Source: a virus (taxonomy: Duplodnaviria > Caudoviricetes). Taken from it: a stretch of 64,000 nucleotides of DNA. Both the position numbers and the translations under genes were made by a program. Each line of letters opens with the position of its first letter. Positions within the stretch are counted from its first letter, which is position 1. The DNA lies in IMG/VR virus record IMGVR_UViG_2627853916_000003, positions 27,868 to 91,867 of that record. One strand, 5' to 3'. The notes beneath the pieces were generated by a model, which saw only the letters and a program-made list of their open reading frames with translations, ran no database searches and was not told the origin of the DNA. Below are positions 15,399 through 56,028 of the stretch, one piece after another.

Positions 15399-16973
15399 TT
15401 AACGGATTAGTACAGGTTCACCAAGGATTCGACGTGCAGAGCCAGTTGGACAGAACGACCAAGTGACTTTCCAGTAATCGATTTCCACTTGCTTAACTTC
15501 CAGCGTCCAAGCGTTCTCGCCGTCTTGAGCTGGATTACGAGGTGTCACTAGCGCACCAACGGCTTCATAGCCCTCTAGGATGCTGGCCATACCGTCAGTT
15601 AGACCCTCAAGCGTTGCACCGTCAGGTTGGTGTTTTAGGCGATTACCTAGTGCGTAGAAGTCGCGTGAGATAGCGTCAGCAATAGACACGACTTGCTCAA
15701 AACGTAGGTAGTTTTCAGCCGCAGATGACGTTAGGGAGTCATCAACGAACAGGTTGCCGTTTTCGTCTGTGCCTAGTTTGTTTAGACGTGCCTTGTACAT
15801 TTCTTGGTAGTTAGGCTCGCCAGCACCTTGGATTGGTTTTAGGCCAGTACGTTGGATAACAGCACGTTCAACACCCGCTGGTGTGTAGTGCCAACCGCCG
15901 ACCGGAGAGGTCTTAGCAACGCCAAGCGCTTTAGCTGCAAAGCCGATGCCGGAGCCGCCCCATACCGCCATGTTGCCGTAGAAACGACACTTCGCTTGGT
16001 AAGGGATATGCACGAATGAAGCGCGATGGTTGTTGAAGTTCAGACCTTTTTTGAACTCCAATGCCGCTTCGTGCGTTAGGCGAGGATCAACATCGAAGTA
16101 GCCAGAAATGCGTTTGTCTTTACAGATTTGCGCAAGATCAGTGATCACCGCTGTTTCGTAGCAGCCCAAACCACAAACGTAGTTAAAGCTGTAAACGGTA
16201 GTGCGTAGTGCTTTCACTGCTTTCTGGTAGTCGTCAGCCGTAATTTCGCTAATATTGCCGTTGGTCGCGCCAGTGAATTTGGTTTTAGCAATTGCAGTAA
16301 CTTCGCGTTTCGCTACTTCTGCATCGATGCGACAAGTTAGGTACTGCGAACGTTCTTCAAGAACAGTCTCGATAAACGCCGCGCTACCCATTTGGTCTAC
16401 TGCTGTAGGCTCTAGGGATACAATCCATTCTTCTAGCACTACAGAGCCACCAGCCGCTTGTTCTTCCTCTAGGGTAAGAGTGAACATACCAGCGCCGTAA
16501 GTCGCTTCGTCTGCTTTCGCAAGCGTGATAGAACGGTTGTCTGATTGAGCACCGTCTTTGATAGCGAACGCTAAAAATTCGCTTTCTTCTAGCGATAGGT
16601 CAGCCGAGTAGTTGATCGCTTCGTTAGTGATAACTACATCGTCTGCTGGTTTAGTTAGCTTGATAGCTGGGTAAGTTGCCGTTTTTGGTACGACACGAAC
16701 CACAAGGCCATTACCGCCGCGCAATGCTTCGTCAAGAACGCGCATGCCGTCAGCTAATTTGCCAAGGCTTGAGTGGTAAGGCTTACCTAGTTTGTCTAGG
16801 AAGTTAGCCGCCGTTACCGGAATAACTTCGAACGGCTTACCTTTTTGAGACACAATCACACCGCCAAACACTAGCTGGTTTGAGCCAGTGCCTTGCTTAG
16901 TTGTCGAGTCAGCGTTAATTGGCGCAACCGCAACTTGTGAGACGTTATCCATTGAAAATTCAATCTTACTCAT
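15399..16973 (-). CDS. Contractile tail sheath (P1 gp22-like)
   Basis: 524 aa; WHYTPAGVERA sheath-like motif; next to the capsid gene. Confidence 0.8.
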   Translation of the reverse strand: MSKIEFSMDNVSQVAVAPINADSTTKQGTGSNQLVFGGVIVSQKGKPFEVIPVTAANFLDKLGKPYHSSLGKLADGMRVLDEALRGGNGLVVRVVPKTATYPAIKLTKPADDVVITNEAINYSADLSLEESEFLAFAIKDGAQSDNRSITLAKADEATYGAGMFTLTLEEEQAAGGSVVLEEWIVSLEPTAVDQMGSAAFIETVLEERSQYLTCRIDAEVAKREVTAIAKTKFTGATNGNISEITADDYQKAVKALRTTVYSFNYVCGLGCYETAVITDLAQICKDKRISGYFDVDPRLTHEAALEFKKGLNFNNHRASFVHIPYQAKCRFYGNMAVWGGSGIGFAAKALGVAKTSPVGGWHYTPAGVERAVIQRTGLKPIQGAGEPNYQEMYKARLNKLGTDENGNLFVDDSLTSSAAENYLRFEQVVSIADAISRDFYALGNRLKHQPDGATLEGLTDGMASILEGYEAVGALVTPRNPAQDGENAWTLEVKQVEIDYWKVTWSFCPTGSARRILGEPVLIR

Positions 16974-17409
16974 GTTCAGTCTCTTTCAGCGTTAGATCCT
17001 GTGCTGCAAGCTGGCCGACAATTTCTTGCAAACCCGCTTGAGCAATACCTTTCACCGAAATCACGTTTTCTTGCGTCATCTCGGTTAGTTGCTCAACCGT
17101 TGTTACACCGTGGTTAGTCAGTGCTTTTTCAACGCTCGCGCTTAGCTCAAGTGCTGATAGCGCTGTGCCTTTGTCGCTGGTGGCTGTGTCTGGTTGTTTT
17201 TGAACTTCTGGTAAAACCGTTGGCTCAAGGCGAACCGAAACAAGGCCGTTTGGATAGGCCGCTTCCACTTCGTGTTTGAAGCGGTTCACGTTGAAAACTG
17301 AGAGAGGAAAATCTTTAGCCAGTGGTGGCATGACGCGACCCTGTACCGTGATTTCCTTTGGTGTGTGGTTGGTGATTAAAACGATCGTTTCTTTCATCGA
17401 ATCCCCCAA
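16966..17409 (-). CDS. Protein with C-terminal RNA polymerase alpha-CTD-like (HhH) domain
   Basis: LSALELSASVEKALTNHGVTTVEQL...VKGIAQAGLQEI matches the alpha-CTD pattern. Confidence 0.65.
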   Translation of the reverse strand: MGDSMKETIVLITNHTPKEITVQGRVMPPLAKDFPLSVFNVNRFKHEVEAAYPNGLVSVRLEPTVLPEVQKQPDTATSDKGTALSALELSASVEKALTNHGVTTVEQLTEMTQENVISVKGIAQAGLQEIVGQLAAQDLTLKETEHE

Positions 17410-19373: not shown

Positions 19374-19721
19374 TTATAGCGTTCCAGCCAAAAAGCCGAA
19401 CACATTGCTTAGCAGCTCTTGTGTGTCAGTTTCCAAGCTAGGAAGCTGTACACCGTAGAAAACCGCTAAAAAGTCACGAACGATGAGCTGATAAACGACC
19501 ACCAGCGCAATGCTCCACATCATTGCTGAGCGTCCAGTGCGTACCAGCGTGTTAGAGCTGGCTGCCTCAAGTTCTGCCAGTTTGTAGGCAAACTCTTTGC
19601 GTTCTTCGTCGCTGGTAAACACGCGATCTCCAAACTCGGCCAGTTCGTGAATAATGCCGCCCACTTTATCGCTGGTGGCACTCTTAAATAGACCTTTAGT
19701 AAACACTTTTGCTAGTCCCAT
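19374..19721 (-). CDS. Holin-like membrane protein
   Basis: FTSDEER motif and hydrophobic helices; adjacent to the amidase. Confidence 0.7.
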
Positions 19722-19723
19722 AT

Positions 19724-20272
19724 TTAGCCCTCTTTGATGTGTTCTGCGAACGCTTCTGCCAGTACCACGGCGAGCTGTTCACGTAGTTCTAAGCCCTTTT
19801 GCAACGATTCATCGTTAGACAAAAAGAACGGCTCTAAAATCACGGCTGGCATCTTGGTTTTCATCAAGAAACGCCAACCGCGAGTATCAGTACCAGTGTT
19901 CGAGATAGGCTTAAGGCCACGGTCACGCTGTCCGATAAGTCCAGCCACCGCTTTTTGTAGGCACTGCGCGAGCGCTTGGCTCTTGGCGGATTTGTGCCAG
20001 TACAATGTCTCTGAGCCTTGAACGTCCTTATTGGCCACGCTGTTACAATGTAACTCGATGGCGTAGTTAGCGCCCGAACCGTTCACGTCATCGATCATGC
20101 GTGAGTAGGTATCTCGGTACATGATCACTGGAAGAATGTCGCGCTTATGCAGTTCGGCAGCCAATAAGCTGGCTAGGGGATGATTGTATGCGTACTCATT
20201 CATTCCGAATGTTTCATTGTGCGCGCCACCATCTTTAAAACTATGGCCAACGATAATACAGACTTTTTTCAT
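19724..20272 (-). CDS. Endolysin, N-acetylmuramoyl-L-alanine amidase (Amidase_3)
   Basis: GH..., E, ELHCNS and [12 protein letters not shown] zinc-amidase motifs. Confidence 0.92.
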
Positions 20273-20316
20273 TTTTCAGATTTCCAAACTAAATATAACT
20301 AATTAATAGTTAAGTG

Positions 20317-20345
20317 TTGACTGTGTTCGGAATAGGAAATATATT
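20317..20345 (+). promoter_or_regulatory. Sigma70 promoter with operator in spacer
   Basis: TTGACT-17 bp (contains GTGTTCGGAAT at 20323-20333)-TATATT. Confidence 0.75.
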
Positions 20346-20351
20346 ATTTGC

Positions 20352-20473
20352 GTCTACTCGTTCTCCCAAGCGAGTGATGCCAACTGACGTTGAGATACTT
20401 CAATTTACTTCGACTGACAGCCTGACATTAGCTTCCAGTTTCGCCGCGACTCACTTACCTCGCGGCTTTTTTT
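20352..20473 (+). ncRNA. Qrr-like small RNA (about 120 nt)
   Basis: Promoter upstream; 5' hairpin ACTCG/CGAGT; GCCAACTGACGTTG (20379-20392) matches the recalled Qrr conserved core; terminator GCCGCGA/TCGCGGC-T7. Confidence 0.7.
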
Positions 20474-20519
20474 GCCTGTCGCATAGAAAAAACCAGCGCG
20501 AACGCTGGCTTTACTTGGA

Positions 20520-20861
20520 TTATGGTCGGTTGTGAACGGGCTCTATCTTGTTTGATTTAAAGTAATCAATAACAGGATTCACTCGATACGGCTCTACATG
20601 GAAGCTGGCTACTACCTGATCTTTGCGCATCAAGTAAAACTGATTTCCGTTGTATCGTACCGCATCAAATATCACGTTCATCCGGCATCCATCGTACATG
20701 TACTCGCCATCGACGCTAAGGCTTTTGCGTATCACAAAGGATAGGCGCGCCTTGGTCGCTTTAAGCTCATTACGGACTTTAACTAAGTTAATCGCCAGTA
20801 CGATAAGGAGCGACAATAATCCGCATAGTTGGTATGCGTTAAGGTTAATTGAATAGCTCAT
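20520..20861 (-). CDS. Hypothetical membrane-anchored protein
   Basis: ORF from MSYSINL with an N-terminal TM helix. Confidence 0.55.
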   Translation of the reverse strand: MSYSINLNAYQLCGLLSLLIVLAINLVKVRNELKATKARLSFVIRKSLSVDGEYMYDGCRMNVIFDAVRYNGNQFYLMRKDQVVASFHVEPYRVNPVIDYFKSNKIEPVHNRP

Positions 20862-20911
20862 ATTGTTATTTTTTATGTACGAATAGGAAATTTGTAAAAT
20901 ACGGAAACATT

Positions 20912-21679
20912 CTACAGTGTAAACACCTCTGCTGTCGCGTCTTTGATGCTCGGTTTTTTCGTCTGGTTGCTGCAAATGGTAAACGAAATCGCCTTAGTGA
21001 AGTAGTCCAGCGCCAAGGTGCGTTCCTCTTTCGACGCAATGATCATTGCCTCAATCACCTTGCTTGAGCTGGCCACGCCACCAGCAAGCGGAGTCATTAC
21101 CTCGTTTAGTGCATCGGCCTTGTTGGCCAGTTCTGGCGGTAAGACTGGCGGCGGCAAGGTTGCACCTCCACCCGTACCACTTTCGCCCGTTGGTGGCGCT
21201 GGTGGCGTCAATGCGCTGTTGATTTGCGCCATTAGGGACACGGCCTCATCAACATGGCCAGAAATACCGTTGATCACTGCCTCAAGCGCTTTCAGTTCTT
21301 CCTTGCTGGTAATTGGCAAGATACTCGGAGCGGGTACGTTGTCCTCTGTACCATCTACCTTGCGCTTAATGTTCACACCAATAGACACTTGCTCTAGGTC
21401 GGTTGGGTCGGTGATCAACACTAGGTGCTCATTCCATTGCGTTAACGTGGCCACGGTTGCGCTCACTGAGACATTTAAGCCCTTAAGCGTTGCGACTAGC
21501 TTTGATGCGCCTTGGTAGTCCTCAATATCCTCGCTCACGCAGCCTGATAGCTTCTCTGACAAACTTTCACACTTCACCTTAAGGGATTTACCTCGGGTAA
21601 GGTTCTCCGCTTCCTTAAGGCCGCCTACGTCTAAAAACTGGCGAAACTGCTCGATTTGCTCTTGTGTGTCTAACATCAA
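20912..21679 (-). CDS. P1 UpfB-like protein
   Basis: Follows PAAR as in P1; 255 aa. Confidence 0.5.
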   Translation of the reverse strand: MMLDTQEQIEQFRQFLDVGGLKEAENLTRGKSLKVKCESLSEKLSGCVSEDIEDYQGASKLVATLKGLNVSVSATVATLTQWNEHLVLITDPTDLEQVSIGVNIKRKVDGTEDNVPAPSILPITSKEELKALEAVINGISGHVDEAVSLMAQINSALTPPAPPTGESGTGGGATLPPPVLPPELANKADALNEVMTPLAGGVASSSKVIEAMIIASKEERTLALDYFTKAISFTICSNQTKKPSIKDATAEVFTL

Positions 21680-38508: not shown

Positions 38509-38640
38509 GCGTACAAACTCGTAAGGCAAATCTTGGTTTTCTTCCATTGACCTAAGCGGCTGTTCCGTTGGAACTCTCTCCACTTAGTTTGAACAAAAAA
38601 AGCCCCAGCTAATAGCTAGGGCTTTTTTTAGATTCGTTTT

Positions 38641-38859
38641 TTAAGCAAGGCAGACATTAGCCGCTTGCAGGCCTTTCTGGCCTCTCTCAACATTAAATGT
38701 AACCTGTTGACCTTCAATCAAAGTCTTAAATCCATCGGATACAATGGCATTAAAGTGAACAAACACATCGTCACCACCATCACTTTGAGAAAGAAAACCA
38801 AAACCTTTCGATTCGTTGAACCATTTAACTGTACCAGTTGCTTTATTTGAATTAGACAT
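38641..38859 (-). CDS. cspA: Cold-shock protein (CspA family)
   Basis: [14 protein letters not shown] and DVFVHF RNP motifs; long 5' leader; own terminator. Confidence 0.9.
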
Positions 38860-39105
38860 TGTTGTCCCTTATAAAATTAAATTAATTATATCGCAAAATG
38901 CGACGCGCTAAGACATTGAATTATTTAATGATTGGGAACAACTAAGGAGCATTCTAAGTATTGTAACGTAGAGAGGTACAACAAGGAGAGGTTTTACTTA
39001 ATATGAAACTTTGCATTTAATAACTCTGAACAGCAGAGCGGAGCTAGTATTACTCAAGTTGCTTACAATGTAAATGTTTTTTTGACGAATGTCACAAAAT
39101 TTTCT

Positions 39106-42658: not shown

Positions 42659-42746
42659 GATGCAAATTCGTCATTTTTAAACGTCTAAAACGTCACGTTT
42701 ATCAATAGGAGCACATTATAACTGTGAGTAACGTATTTGCAAGGTC

Positions 42747-42756
42747 TGTTCGGAAT
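42747..42756 (+). promoter_or_regulatory. Putative C1-type operator
   Basis: TGTTCGGAAT upstream of the 42658-39235 operon. Confidence 0.6.
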
Positions 42757-43608: not shown

Positions 43609-44238
43609 TTACAGTGCCTTTGGCGTTAGTGAAATGCCTGTTGTGTACTCTTTCGCTTCGTCGTGGAACGTTCTTAGGTAGTGGTCGGTCACAGCAATGC
43701 TCGAATGGCCAAGCGCATCTTTGATGACCTTAAGAGACGCGCCACTGTCCAACAGTAGCATGGCGTACATTTTGCGCATGGAATGTGTTGATAGTTGGTA
43801 TGGCAGTCTCAATTCCATCGCTATGCGCTTATATACACGGTTGATGTACTGGATGCTGATCGCGTTGCCTTTCTTGGCCAAGTGGTGATTGGATTGAAAC
43901 ATCACCTCATTATGGCCATTGTGCAAATAGATACGTCGAATCAGTTCTTCCAGCTCTGCATTAACGTGGATGGTAATGCGGGATGCTTCCTTAGCAGCCT
44001 TTTGGCTCTTACCTCGGGTAATTCGACCGTTATAGCCTTTTGACTGAACAATGGTAAATGACGACTTAATCACGCCATTTATCATCACATCGCTGAATTT
44101 TAGCTTCGAAATGTCGCAGTAACGCAAACCTGTACGCACTTCCATTTCAATCATCATAGAGATAAGCGGATTAATGTCATCCATTAAACGGATTATTTGT
44201 TGTAACTCGTTTAAGTCACGCGCAGGGAAAGCAGCCAT
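43609..44238 (-). CDS. Tyrosine recombinase (catalytic domain only)
   Basis: TGLRYCDI, HSMRK, LGHSS and TDHY: complete catalytic set. Confidence 0.92.
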   Translation of the reverse strand: MAAFPARDLNELQQIIRLMDDINPLISMMIEMEVRTGLRYCDISKLKFSDVMINGVIKSSFTIVQSKGYNGRITRGKSQKAAKEASRITIHVNAELEELIRRIYLHNGHNEVMFQSNHHLAKKGNAISIQYINRVYKRIAMELRLPYQLSTHSMRKMYAMLLLDSGASLKVIKDALGHSSIAVTDHYLRTFHDEAKEYTTGISLTPKAL

Positions 44239-44696: not shown

Positions 44697-45030
44697 TTTT
44701 TGCTGATCCTTTTTGGCGGTACACCATTGTTTGCTTGCTAAGTAATATATTCCTTTGGAATATCATTTGCAAGCCTGTTCGGAATACTTCACTTGAAAGT
44801 ACAAAGAGTTTCAAAAGTCGCTATTTCGTCGCTTTTTGATACAAAACACAATAAAGAACAAAATACCACCAGCAACATGTGGTTTTTATCGAATATTCCT
44901 ATGGAATATATGGGATTCCGCACACGAAATGCCAGGATTGGACTGAACAAGCAGAATAAGCCTAAGTGACTGTTTTTATTATGTTTTACTGTTTTTGTGT
45001 GGTGCTGGTGGCTTTAAAAGACGTGATAAG

Positions 45031-45062
45031 TTAGTTTCAGTTCCATGCAGAACTGAAACTAA
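45031..45062. other. lox-like site, copy 2 (perfect 13-bp arms)
   Basis: TTAGTTTCAGTTC-CATGCA-GAACTGAAACTAA, at the P1 loxP-equivalent position between recombinase and coi/c1. Confidence 0.6.
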
Positions 45063-45215
45063 AAGGGTGTTTTTAAAAACATGCGACTCCAATTACCCAC
45101 TTGTGGCAATATAATGACAGAGTTACACCGTCACGCGACACGAACAAAACTGCATACCCACACTCATTATGCGGTATGGCTCACGTTATGAAACCTTTCC
45201 AGTGAGTAACGATAC

Positions 45216-45235
45216 AGTTGCATTATTTTGCATAT
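45216..45235. promoter_or_regulatory. Candidate AphA box
   Basis: AGTTGCA-TTATTT-TGCATAT, 12/14 to ATATGCA-N6-TGCATAT. Confidence 0.45.
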
Positions 45236-45369
45236 ATAGACAATCCGAGATCACAGTCTCATAATATTGCGCACAAAAGTGTCCGATTGGATAGTATCCC
45301 CTAAATGCTTTCCAAATCAGGGCGATAATTGTTTGGTTGGCCAGTTGGTTGGCTTAAGAGATATAGACT

Positions 45370-45576
45370 ATGCAGCGCACGTTGAATCAATTAATCCCAC
45401 TTGAAATCCTAGACAAATGTGACCTTTCTTTAGACGCATTTAGTGAGTCGTTCCTAGAAGATGCAACCGATATTTGCATGTTCCACCTTATCCAAACGCA
45501 TCCGAACGCACTATGCAATTCGTCTATCAATCGTGATGATGTTTTAAACTTCGTTCGAGATCACTTCTCCGCTTAA
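45370..45576 (+). CDS. Small acidic protein, positional equivalent of P1 Coi (C1 inactivator)
   Basis: 68 aa; acidic; directly upstream of c1. Confidence 0.45.
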   Translation: MQRTLNQLIPLEILDKCDLSLDAFSESFLEDATDICMFHLIQTHPNALCNSSINRDDVLNFVRDHFSA

Positions 45577-45617
45577 AAATCAATACTTCCCACGTTCTTC
45601 TGTTCGTTTTTTATTTA

Positions 45618-45628
45618 ATTCCGAACAC
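45618..45628 (-). promoter_or_regulatory. Operator upstream of c1 (autoregulation)
   Basis: ATTCCGAACAC. Confidence 0.65.
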
Positions 45629-45723: not shown

Positions 45724-46629
45724 TTGGAGCAACCGTTCACCATGATTAATAAATTAAAGACTAAAATTAAAGATCCCAAACCTATTGATATAGATACACT
45801 TAATCAACTTCTTGCAAATAAACAAACGGCTGATGCTCGCCTTAAACGTGCCTTGAAGCACCGCGCGACATTTTCCGAACAAATTGATGGTAAGGAAGAT
45901 AGTGGACTATTCAATGATCGTATCGTAGCTGTAGTAAAACGTGGCAATCCAACCACTCGTTTACTTGAGTATATTGATGCCGCTAAAGCTGCAAATCAGG
46001 AGCTTTTAGAACGCGCGCCTCAATACTTCAATAGCTCATCTAACTCGTTTAAAGAGACAACCGTAATTGATAACGTTCGTCGCGTTAATATCACAATCAA
46101 TAAAGCTGCAAGCAGCCAAAAAATGACTGGCGCTCGCCTAATTAAACGCCTTGAAGCGTACTTACGTGATATTGACCGACAACTCTCTTACGAATTGCCA
46201 GAAGATGAGTTAGAACAGCTTAATAAGAACAAAGCTGACGCTCTGCGCGAACTGGACTACTTCCAAAAACATGCAGACGTTGAATTTAGAAAACGTGGCC
46301 AAGAACACAACGATATTGTTGCCATCATCCATACCTTTAATGGAAATGACGACACTGTATCGCGTGTAGCGAAAAAGGTTCACGTTAACGCTGGTGGCCT
46401 TGTCGTTATTAGGCATCGTTCTTGTAAAGATCACGATGTGCTAATCACGAACAACACCACTGAGGGACGCTCGATATTTGATGAAGCTAATTCATTCAAA
46501 TCCGTGCTTTACCCAACGGCTACCATGTACATCGAAAGCGAACTAAACGCGATTAGAGAATCCAGAAAAGAGCTAAGAAGTAGAAACGAAAACAAAGCCC
46601 GTTCGCAGTTCGACGGCTATGTTAACTAG
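45724..46629 (+). CDS. c1: P1 C1-like primary repressor
   Basis: Convergent with pacB as in P1; NVRRV...MTGARLIKRL, FRKR and SIFD..YP segments resemble recalled P1 C1. Confidence 0.7.
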   Translation: MEQPFTMINKLKTKIKDPKPIDIDTLNQLLANKQTADARLKRALKHRATFSEQIDGKEDSGLFNDRIVAVVKRGNPTTRLLEYIDAAKAANQELLERAPQYFNSSSNSFKETTVIDNVRRVNITINKAASSQKMTGARLIKRLEAYLRDIDRQLSYELPEDELEQLNKNKADALRELDYFQKHADVEFRKRGQEHNDIVAIIHTFNGNDDTVSRVAKKVHVNAGGLVVIRHRSCKDHDVLITNNTTEGRSIFDEANSFKSVLYPTATMYIESELNAIRESRKELRSRNENKARSQFDGYVN

Positions 46630-52408: not shown

Positions 52409-52759
52409 TTAATCAAATAGGGAGTCAGCGCCGATTAGTGGTACAAGACGAAGTAAAACATCCTCCATAACTCCACTTTCAGCGGTGGCAATCTTTTTGG
52501 CTTTGCGATCTTTCCAAGATAGGGTTTGGACTAAGCTAGAAGCGACCACGCAGGGTTTATCTAGGTTGTTTACAGGAACTTCCGTTGCTTGGCCGCGAAT
52601 ACTGGTGCTAATAGGGCAGCAAATGAGTAGTCCTGTTTGTTGGTTGTATTCTTTGCTGGAAAGCACTAGCGCAGGACGGTACTTGCCAATTTCCTTTCCC
52701 TTTGTTGGCTCAAAGTCGAGCCAGATAATATCGTTTCGTTTAGGAATAAACTGCGCCAT
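52409..52759 (-). CDS. mazF: MazF/PemK toxin
   Basis: DIIWLDFEPTKGKEIGKYRPALVLS. Confidence 0.92.
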   Translation of the reverse strand: MAQFIPKRNDIIWLDFEPTKGKEIGKYRPALVLSSKEYNQQTGLLICCPISTSIRGQATEVPVNNLDKPCVVASSLVQTLSWKDRKAKKIATAESGVMEDVLLRLVPLIGADSLFD

Positions 52760-55122: not shown

Positions 55123-55411
55123 GGATTCGAACCATATCTTTGTAAGCAGAGAACACTACGCTGTGCTCGGTTTTTACGCCTAAGCGCTCTTTAGTGGCGG
55201 GATTGATGGTTGTGCGTTCGCGTTCAACGTGACGTAGGCGACCAAAACCACGGACTTGCACCTCTCGGCCTTTCGCCAGCTCCACCAGCATGTGATTGAA
55301 CATTGCGTCCAGACAATCGCCAATCAGCTCTGCATCATCACCAGTGAGTTTTAAACCAAGGCGTTTTGAAATGTTTCTCTCGATGTCAGTTCGGTTTAGG
55401 CGTGTGGTCAT
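55115..55411 (-). CDS. HU/IHF-family DNA-binding protein
   Basis: GREVQVRGFG...INPAT. Confidence 0.85.
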   Translation of the reverse strand: MTTRLNRTDIERNISKRLGLKLTGDDAELIGDCLDAMFNHMLVELAKGREVQVRGFGRLRHVERERTTINPATKERLGVKTEHSVVFSAYKDMVRIHE

Positions 55412-55734
55412 TAGTTCGCTCCCTTAATCTCGTTTACCATGTTTGCTAGTGCTTCACGGAATACATCCGATGCACTAAAGGTCAGCTTGACGCGCGCTGG
55501 TACAATGGCTGGTGCTCCCGTTTTTGGATTACGGCCAGCTCGGGCTTTCTTATGGCGAGCAGAGAATGTGCCGAAGCCACTTAGCAATACTGTGTTGCCC
55601 TCGATCATTGTTTGAGTTGAGATTTCTTCGATAAAGGCATTGAAGACCAGCTCGCATTCTTCACGCAATGCGCCCGTTTCCTTCTTCATTGCTGAGATGA
55701 TTTCGTACTTTCCGACGGCTTGTTGTTTAGACAC
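55411..55734 (-). CDS. HU/IHF-family DNA-binding protein
   Basis: LSGFGTFSARHKKARAGRNPKTG. Confidence 0.92.
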   Translation of the reverse strand: MSKQQAVGKYEIISAMKKETGALREECELVFNAFIEEISTQTMIEGNTVLLSGFGTFSARHKKARAGRNPKTGAPAIVPARVKLTFSASDVFREALANMVNEIKGAN

Positions 55735-55997: not shown

Positions 55998-56028
55998 ATT
56001 CCGAACACGCCGTAAACATTCCGAACAC
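55998..56028 (-). promoter_or_regulatory. Tandem operators overlapping promoter
   Basis: ATTCCGAACAC at 55998 and 56018; TTTACG-16-TATAAT on the minus strand. Confidence 0.75.

Follow-up and report, generated by a model that had tools for sequence, protein, structure and literature searches.

Why would a phage carry the pairing sequence of a bacterial quorum-sensing RNA? The question is raised by a short unit on the plus strand, positions 20317-20473, of a 64-kb stretch of DNA (hereafter the window) that forms the right-hand part of the 91.9-kb IMG/VR record IMGVR_UViG_2627853916_000003, rated 93% complete. A sequence-only reading of the window took this unit for a phage-encoded small RNA (sRNA) modelled on the Qrr sRNAs of Vibrio, and the comparisons described here support the view that it is a free-standing, conserved sRNA-like gene of a phage-plasmid. 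As to its role, we put at about 0.5 the probability that it is a partial mimic of Qrr, carried and rewired by the phage, with luxR/opaR-type mRNAs as its targets.

All of the elements that had been read from the letters are present on that strand, namely a promoter, a motif in the promoter spacer, a 5' hairpin, the Qrr-like 14-mer, and a GC hairpin followed by seven U residues:

20317-20322, plus strand: -35 hexamer TTGACT of the sRNA promoter, which as a whole has 10 of 12 consensus matches
20323-20333, plus strand: dispersed operator-like motif GTGTTCGGAAT, which opens the promoter spacer and is repeated across the window
20340-20345, plus strand: -10 hexamer TATATT, separated from the -35 by a 17-nt spacer
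20352-20473, plus strand: predicted sRNA transcript of ~122 nt, its start placed from the -10 box
20352-20378, plus strand: stem-loop 1 (the 5' hairpin, 27 nt) in the minimum free energy (MFE) fold, with the loop UCCCAA
20379-20392, plus strand: seed 14-mer GCCAACTGACGTTG, identical to the Qrr core, with a stem-loop-2-like mini-hairpin CAAC-UGAC-GUUG at 20381-20392
20412-20440, plus strand: weak, poorly conserved third stem-loop of the MFE fold, at the position of Qrr stem-loop 3
20443-20473, plus strand: Rho-independent terminator by sequence and fold, with a 7-bp GC stem (20443-20466), a 10-nt loop and seven U

The promoter does have the proposed form TTGACT-17-TATATT, with sigma-70-type -35 and -10 boxes instead of a sigma-54 box, and it is outscored by none in 19500-21500, a region with five promoter-like sites. 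The unit was also said to hold no open reading frame (ORF) of its own, and this stands: its sole AUG, which is missing from the alginolyticus-type relatives, opens a frame without a stop through the terminator, and the only long frame that spans the unit begins upstream of the promoter and reads through the terminator. The 14-mer GCCAACTGACGTTG is present as a single exact copy in the window. A U-tailed terminator is a usual Hfq-binding feature, and the terminator of the unit has such a tail.

Is the unit conserved? A 401-nt region is matched by 10 Vibrio plasmids in PLSDB at 79-80% identity. Nine of the ten were taken into an alignment of 10 rows (A1), H3 being omitted as the apparent twin of H2. 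Within A1 there is almost no variation in the -35, motif, -10 and terminator stem, nor in the minus-strand terminator of the neighboring ORF; the 5' hairpin is rebuilt from different bases, and the third stem has indels. The -35 reads TTGACT in eight of the 10 rows and TTGATT or ATGACT in one row each, and the -10 is unchanged in all of them (elsewhere in the family, locus L010 has TATGTT). A third, far more distant version, locus L035, is found on a 95.6-kb plasmid of Vibrio sp. THAF strains, where the order of endolysin, unit and small ORF is the same. The flanks of this THAF type cannot be aligned with the others, yet it has a promoter of the form TTGATC / motif / TATACT, a terminator of its own, and an exact Qrr core of 17 nt. 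The terminator stem does not vary among sequences of the window and alginolyticus types, whereas another hairpin with a U-run takes its place in L035.

The expectation that the 14-mer itself would be conserved in relatives was borne out only in part. The unit is kept in 17 distinct loci, but the exact 14-mer is found in three of them (the window, L010 and L035); 12 of the 14 bases are retained in 13 loci, which differ by two transitions, and 11 of the 14 in one. Because the two most divergent lineages both have the Qrr-identical form of the seed, that form is most simply taken as ancestral.

The unit is rare. It was found in one of 285 species representatives of the genus; viral contigs yielded four loci, none of them new to the family, and 55 pattern matches in metagenome contigs included two family members. 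Phage GenBank records held no match to the unit. Could such a unit, then, be non-functional, its promoter, hairpins and Qrr-like 14-mer having arisen by chance in an intergenic spacer? The 14-mer does occur by chance in large collections, with at least 119 occurrences in viral contigs among the matches listed. On the other hand, it is expected only ~0.0005 times in 128 kb (both strands), and among those 119 listed matches the sRNA-like context, outside long open frames and with a downstream T-run, recurs in two loci only, L010 and L035, both of them syntenic relatives. All of the parts are moreover conserved across the 17 loci, and it is this conservation that excludes a chance origin; a unit without function is hardly credible.

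The predicted fold is in keeping with an sRNA. The MFE of 20352-20473 is -30.3 kcal/mol, a value equalled by one of 200 shuffles, and the fold runs from the 5' hairpin through the CAAC-N4-GUUG mini-hairpin within the 14-mer and the weak third stem to the GC terminator stem. Four stem-loops are predicted in each of the three types, with z scores of -2.59 (window), -3.35 (alginolyticus) and -4.18 (THAF), all better than shuffles, and those of L035 are clean throughout. In a nine-sequence alignment of the transcript, 96.2% of the cells that should pair do so, compared with 91.2% after shuffling (reached by none of 500 shuffles) and 21-43% with slid partners. In stem-loop 1, a comparison of the window type with the alginolyticus type shows two pairs in which both partners differ (UA to CG, UG to GU). 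With few such events, among closely related sequences, this evidence from pair counts is supportive, not strong. Stem-loop 2 is invariant and hence uninformative on pairing. The G-U pairs of several helices would be C-A on the opposite strand, and together with the U-run they fit the plus strand only. The unit thus has the general features of the sRNA class: its own promoter, an intrinsic terminator, no conserved ORF, and conservation with structure-preserving changes.

The UCCCAA loop of stem-loop 1 (20369-20374, and the same place in L001-L009) is common to the window and alginolyticus types despite their differing stems, and is not found in L035. A possible role is that of an additional pairing site or of a protein-binding site.

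RNA-library contigs of one organism span 20264-20497 in one run and 20062-20408 in another; strand and ends are unreadable in these contigs, and DNA carry-over is possible. In a separate contig, from a seawater RNA library, both flanks match and 20367-20466 is replaced by 110 other letters, which points to a fourth natural allele of the unit.

Is the unit then a Qrr? Against the Rfam Qrr model (RF00378, gathering cut-off 50 bits) the unit failed, scoring 13.4 bits (E 9.6 on 401 nt). The best relative, L035, reached 20.7 bits, with Qrr as the top family and an E of 0.12, also below the cut-off, and no Qrr at gathering level was found in the window or in the whole 91.9-kb record. A V. diabolicus genome (G001) that itself carries an alginolyticus-type copy served as host proxy and positive control; the model detected five Qrrs in it, at 81.5-112.8 bits, and did not report the phage copy. 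All five have 32 identical bases in common, and these include the 14-mer, so that the Qrr core read in the unit is genuine. Contiguous identity with the 32-nt core extends over 14 bases in the window and 17 in the THAF type, and the alginolyticus type keeps 12 of those 14. A TGGCA-N-TGC box at -26 or -27 lies ahead of five of five host qrr genes and of none of the three phage types examined. Since the score is below threshold, the core is partial and the sigma-54 box is missing, membership in the Qrr family is rejected. Of the proposed Qrr mimic rewired to sigma-70 and C1 control, the Qrr core and the sigma-70-type promoter have thus held up; the unit is not a family member, and the C1 label is unsupported (see below).

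The likeness to Qrr1-5 (RF00378) nevertheless goes beyond the seed. The phage RNAs present the core, of 14 nt in the window and 17 nt for the THAF type, in a CAAC-N4-GUUG mini-hairpin that directly follows the 5' hairpin; they also have a U-tailed terminator, and predicted pairing at the same place in the luxR/opaR leader; the four-stem order of Qrr, with stem-loop 1, the seed-bearing stem-loop 2, stem-loop 3 and the terminator as stem-loop 4, is found in all three types. They differ in their model scores (13-21 versus 81-113 bits) and in having 14-17 of the 32 core bases; in stem-loops 1 and 3, which are unrelated in sequence; in the lack of any predicted aphA pairing; and in having a sigma-70-type promoter with the motif instead of a sigma-54/LuxO box, on a phage-plasmid beside lysis genes instead of on a chromosome. 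The THAF type resembles Qrr over ~30 nt, the likeness including bases just outside the core and the first four bases of the RNA. Because of this resemblance outside the core, capture fits better than convergence, and the seed was most likely inherited from a captured qrr gene.

What would such a seed do on its own? Shao 2013 (EMBO J, PMC3730234) describes stem-loop 2 as the central region of pairing with luxR and with most targets, and stem-loop 1 as required both for aphA and for resistance to RNase E, a protection conferred by structure and not by sequence. Qrr4 without stem-loops 1 and 3, placed on a foreign sRNA body, is reported there to behave much like a stem-loop-1 deletion, with luxR repressed and aphA not activated. 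The phage gene would embody the same principle, a stem-loop-2 seed on a non-Qrr scaffold that is enough for luxR and not for aphA. However, the Qrr4 chimeras of that report (PMC3730234) are laboratory constructs, whereas the phage gene is natural and conserved and has its own promoter logic.

Pairing was predicted over 26-nt windows with opening energies, on the leader from V. diabolicus (G001), which is not known as the host of this record; unrestricted duplex folding was dropped, as it gave meaningless duplexes ~100 nt long. In G001, opaR/luxR lies between hpt and lpd and was identified by NF040929 (429 bits, cut-off 350), luxO by NF041946 (844 bits), and aphA by Pfam PF10400 alone. The predicted duplexes on the opaR leader are:

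-27 to -9: native Qrr, hybrid -16.1 and total -10.9 kcal/mol
-28 to -13: window RNA, in the same register, hybrid -14.5 and total -9.2 kcal/mol
-31 to -10: THAF type, hybrid -19.1 and total -12.9 kcal/mol

Compared with native Qrr, the window RNA is predicted to lose the three pairs that cover the Shine-Dalgarno sequence and to gain a single A-U pair. Just after GUUG, all three phage types have an A where Qrr has a U, and this A lengthens the opaR helix by one pair. The flanks of the THAF type add several more opaR pairs, to an extent reached by 39 of 2000 flank shuffles, and its opaR energy is reached by one of 100 dinucleotide shuffles, as is that of native Qrr. The site CAACTCAAATGGCAAGGA is found exactly in four of 27 parsable luxR leaders (30 loci, 81 Vibrio genomes sampled) and as close variants in others. 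The case for luxR/opaR is one of identity with a seed of known function, of the predicted pairing register and of the THAF-type extension, and not one of energetics. A second opaR-complementary stretch, at nt 45-63 of the alginolyticus type (hybrid -12.8), is not claimed, as 18 of 100 shuffles reach it.

On aphA, the native long Qrrs are predicted to pair at -142 to -118 via stem-loop 1 (hybrid -26.7), while predicted totals for the phage RNAs are only -4.1 to -4.7, at unrelated places. On luxO, no better-than-background pairing of the phage RNAs was found, but the method also missed the native Qrr-luxO pairing (totals -0.5 to -3.6). The sequence-only reading held that induction could force a low-cell-density state. 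With 14 of the 32 core bases and no Qrr stem-loop 1, a full state of this kind, aphA activation included, is not expected.

The unit would accordingly be read, at the even odds given at the outset, as an independently transcribed gene for a trans-acting sRNA of ~120 nt, placed back-to-back with the lysis cassette promoter. The RNA would be laid out on the Qrr plan, with a protective 5' hairpin, a short stem-loop bearing the Qrr core, a third stem and a U-tailed terminator, everything outside the core being different, and its sigma-70-type promoter, with a phage site in the spacer, would not depend on sigma-54 or LuxO. Together with Hfq, the seed would pair with the 5' untranslated region of host luxR/opaR at -28 to -13, where the host Qrrs also bind. 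The Qrr stem-loop 1, with which native Qrrs contact aphA, is missing here, so that no aphA activation would be expected and the mimic would be partial, not complete. The phage could in this way switch off the master regulator of the high-cell-density state of its host without an autoinducer signal.

Several observations weigh against this reading. Besides the low scores of the unit and of L035 against the Qrr model, the seed is changed in 14 of the 17 family loci, including the copy inside G001. The alginolyticus-type seed weakens the predicted pairing at the canonical opaR site (-8.9, with the core alone at -5.1), even in its own host. For the window RNA, 10 of 100 dinucleotide shuffles attain the same opaR energy (for the alginolyticus type, 18 of 100), and the contribution of its flanks is no greater than chance (964 of 2000 flank shuffles). 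Many raw seed duplexes at phage translation starts (380 candidates) have energies of -19 to -21, versus -15.2 for opaR. Finally, one RNA-library contig extends from the endolysin gene into the unit.

Some of these points would suit a real Qrr-seed sRNA whose selected target is another Qrr-responsive mRNA, of host or phage, that bears on the choice between lysis and lysogeny. The loss of opaR pairing in the alginolyticus type, with the rest of the gene intact, and the unremarkable opaR energy of the window sRNA both speak for it, and in V. parahaemolyticus host Qrrs are reported to drive VP882 lysogeny independently of OpaR (PMC11315295). Another target is nonetheless unlikely, given that no better candidate emerged and that the flanks of the THAF type extend complementarity specifically to the opaR leader. 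The phage's own genes were tried as targets and set aside: the scan was non-discriminating, and its top matches at phage starts depend on bases enclosed in stem-loop 1 and resemble noise.

A different role for the seed would be that of a decoy, in which the Qrr core soaks up a QrrX-like sponge or competes for Hfq and so shifts native Qrr activity up or down, with no mRNA regulated by the phage RNA itself. In the account of Huber 2022 (PMC9732341), QrrX of V. cholerae pairs with the conserved Qrr sequence that is used for targets, and 14-17 nt of it are present in the phage RNA. As the complement of Qrr, QrrX inactivates it (PMC9732341); the phage RNA, in contrast, is Qrr-sense, cannot pair with Qrr, and could at most compete for QrrX. 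No QrrX homologue came to light, although no search aimed at one was made in these hosts, and a decoy would have no need of the Qrr-like four-stem layout; the explanation is decidedly improbable.

How might the promoter of the proposed mimic be controlled? Within one mismatch, the asymmetric motif GTGTTCGGAAT has 15 sites in the window compared with 1.07 expected, a count reached by none of 100 shuffles, and its core TTCGGA is at the same promoter position in all relatives; a phage-wide motif in the promoter spacer, as first proposed, is thus well founded. Further copies also occupy the spacers of sigma-70-like promoters, and some precede early-type genes (the operon of helix-turn-helix (HTH) and SSB genes, and the HU-like gene). 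Spacer placement and early-type genes agree with the motif being an operator, and an operator for a repressor fits. It is equally possible, however, that the motif binds an activator of leftward genes that simultaneously blocks the rightward promoter. At 20323, 42746 and 44775 the motif also sits 2-4 nt upstream of a leftward -35 that shares or overlaps the same hexamer, and for this reason the repressor is not preferred over the activator. The label "C1 repressor" is unsupported, since PHROG and Pfam scans of 60 ORFs found no repressor (the P1 C1 sequence was not used as a query), nor any late activator; the sole HTH protein in the scans is of the HTH_3 type and 100 aa long.

Three copies of the motif are clustered in a gene-poor stretch of ~1 kb, 44775-45628, next to a rightward ORF of 301 aa (45724-46629) that has no Pfam family and no match among phage records. 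The cluster is bounded on the other side by a leftward operon with an integrase-family gene (43609-44238) among its members, and the region is a candidate immunity region. A tandem pair of motifs, 20 nt apart, lies at 55998-56028 (minus strand), directly before a TATAAT and upstream of the HU-like gene (55411-55734).

The immediate neighbors of the unit, which is flanked by the first base of the endolysin gene, at 20272 on the minus strand, and by a small ORF on that strand at 20520-20975, raise the question of whether the promoter acts through its RNA at all:

19374-20272, minus strand: lysis cassette, with the endolysin at 19724-20272 (phrog_435, E 7e-43) and the holin at 19374-19721 (phrog_3427, E 3e-19)
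20292-20320, minus strand: candidate divergent endolysin-holin promoter TCAACA-17-TATATT, 9 of 12 consensus, partly conserved in relatives
20487-20508, minus strand: convergent terminator of ORF 20520-20975, with its stem at 20493-20508 and the T-run on the minus strand

As the sRNA terminator faces that of the minus-strand ORF, at which leftward transcription should end ahead of the unit, the unit is a separate plus-strand gene. The -35 of the leftward lysis promoter and that of the sRNA overlap within 20315-20322. This arrangement would be expected of a cis-acting device, in which firing of the strong rightward promoter holds the lysis cassette off by promoter competition and the RNA, with its Qrr-like core, is a relic. 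A similar shared -35 with the motif recurs at 42737-42756 and 44767-44785, and the promoter and motif are the best conserved parts of the unit. We give this explanation little credence all the same: a relic would not retain its 5' hairpin through compensatory changes, nor an identical seed of 14-17 nt where the flanks have diverged beyond alignment, nor a dedicated terminator.

The two other modules of this kind, at 42737-42756 and 44767-44785, use the palindromic TTGCAA as -35 for both directions, with leftward promoters of the form TTGCAA-16-TATAAT or TTGCAA-17-TATATT and a rightward promoter whose spacer holds the TGTTCGGAAT motif. They may represent a recurring bidirectional switch and perhaps mark further non-coding or antisense transcripts.

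A fuller version of the mimic can be drawn, and we offer it tentatively, with the odds somewhat against it. The phage-plasmid family would have captured a host qrr gene and reduced it to the stem-loop-2 seed, under a phage switch that shares its -35 with the lysis genes. The phage, and not the autoinducers, would then set LuxR/OpaR; expression of the sRNA and of the lysis genes would be mutually exclusive; and the seed variants, such as the alginolyticus type, would represent retuned forms with shifted sets of targets.

How would a partial Qrr mimic compare with what is known of phages and quorum sensing? Phages are described as eavesdropping on Vibrio quorum sensing through receptor proteins (PMC11315295), and the host Qrrs as biasing VP882 to lysogeny (Santoriello and Bassler 2024, PMC11315295), via an as yet unknown transcript of the host or the phage. 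VP882, with VqmA-phi, is likewise a plasmid-like Vibrio phage, its life cycle linked to host quorum sensing through a copy of a host component (PMC11315295). VqmA-phi and the other phage receptors of that account (PMC11315295) are proteins that sense an autoinducer, whereas the phage RNA would impose an output downstream of all receptors. If the mimic is real, this would be a different strategy, acting below all receptors and LuxO and overriding the cell-density signal. It would constitute a natural case of a bacterial virus imitating the seed of a host regulatory RNA, and a post-transcriptional hijacking of the quorum-sensing output. The family would also offer a handle on which Qrr targets matter to phages, and on the minimal natural Qrr, a seed plus any stable scaffold. 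Base-pairing sRNAs and anti-sRNAs are found in enterobacterial prophages, among them DicF, AgvB/AsxR and the Pas sRNAs, and the likeness lies in sRNA genes of mobile elements that plug into the host Hfq network. To our knowledge, none of these copies the seed of a host quorum-sensing sRNA. A full-text literature search, with subscription journals largely outside it, returned among the papers listed no description of a phage- or plasmid-borne Qrr-like RNA.

The wider setting of the unit is that of a tailed phage. The window encodes a tail sheath, holin, endolysin, both terminase subunits and a tail injection transglycosylase, as well as SSB, an integrase-family protein and an HU-like protein. 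The closest relatives are circular, 93-142-kb plasmids of V. alginolyticus, V. diabolicus and Vibrio sp., classed as "non-mobilizable". Tail, terminase and lysis genes together with circular plasmid relatives identify the element as a tailed phage-plasmid.

Three other features of the window deserve mention. Just upstream of the tail sheath gene, 16966-17409 (minus strand) encodes a protein of 147 aa in which an RNA polymerase alpha C-terminal domain is recognized (PF03118, 30.3 bits); this protein could take part in phage late transcription. A 116-aa ORF at 52409-52759 (minus strand) matches a MazF-like growth inhibitor family (phrog_1936, E 1e-23). The sole Rfam match at gathering level across the window is a full-length cspA thermoregulator 5' untranslated region (RF01766, 96.8 bits, cut-off 78) at 38596-39042 (minus strand). 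It lies before a 72-aa ORF starting at 38859, so that both a gene for a cold-shock protein and the RNA thermosensor belonging to it are present on the phage-plasmid.

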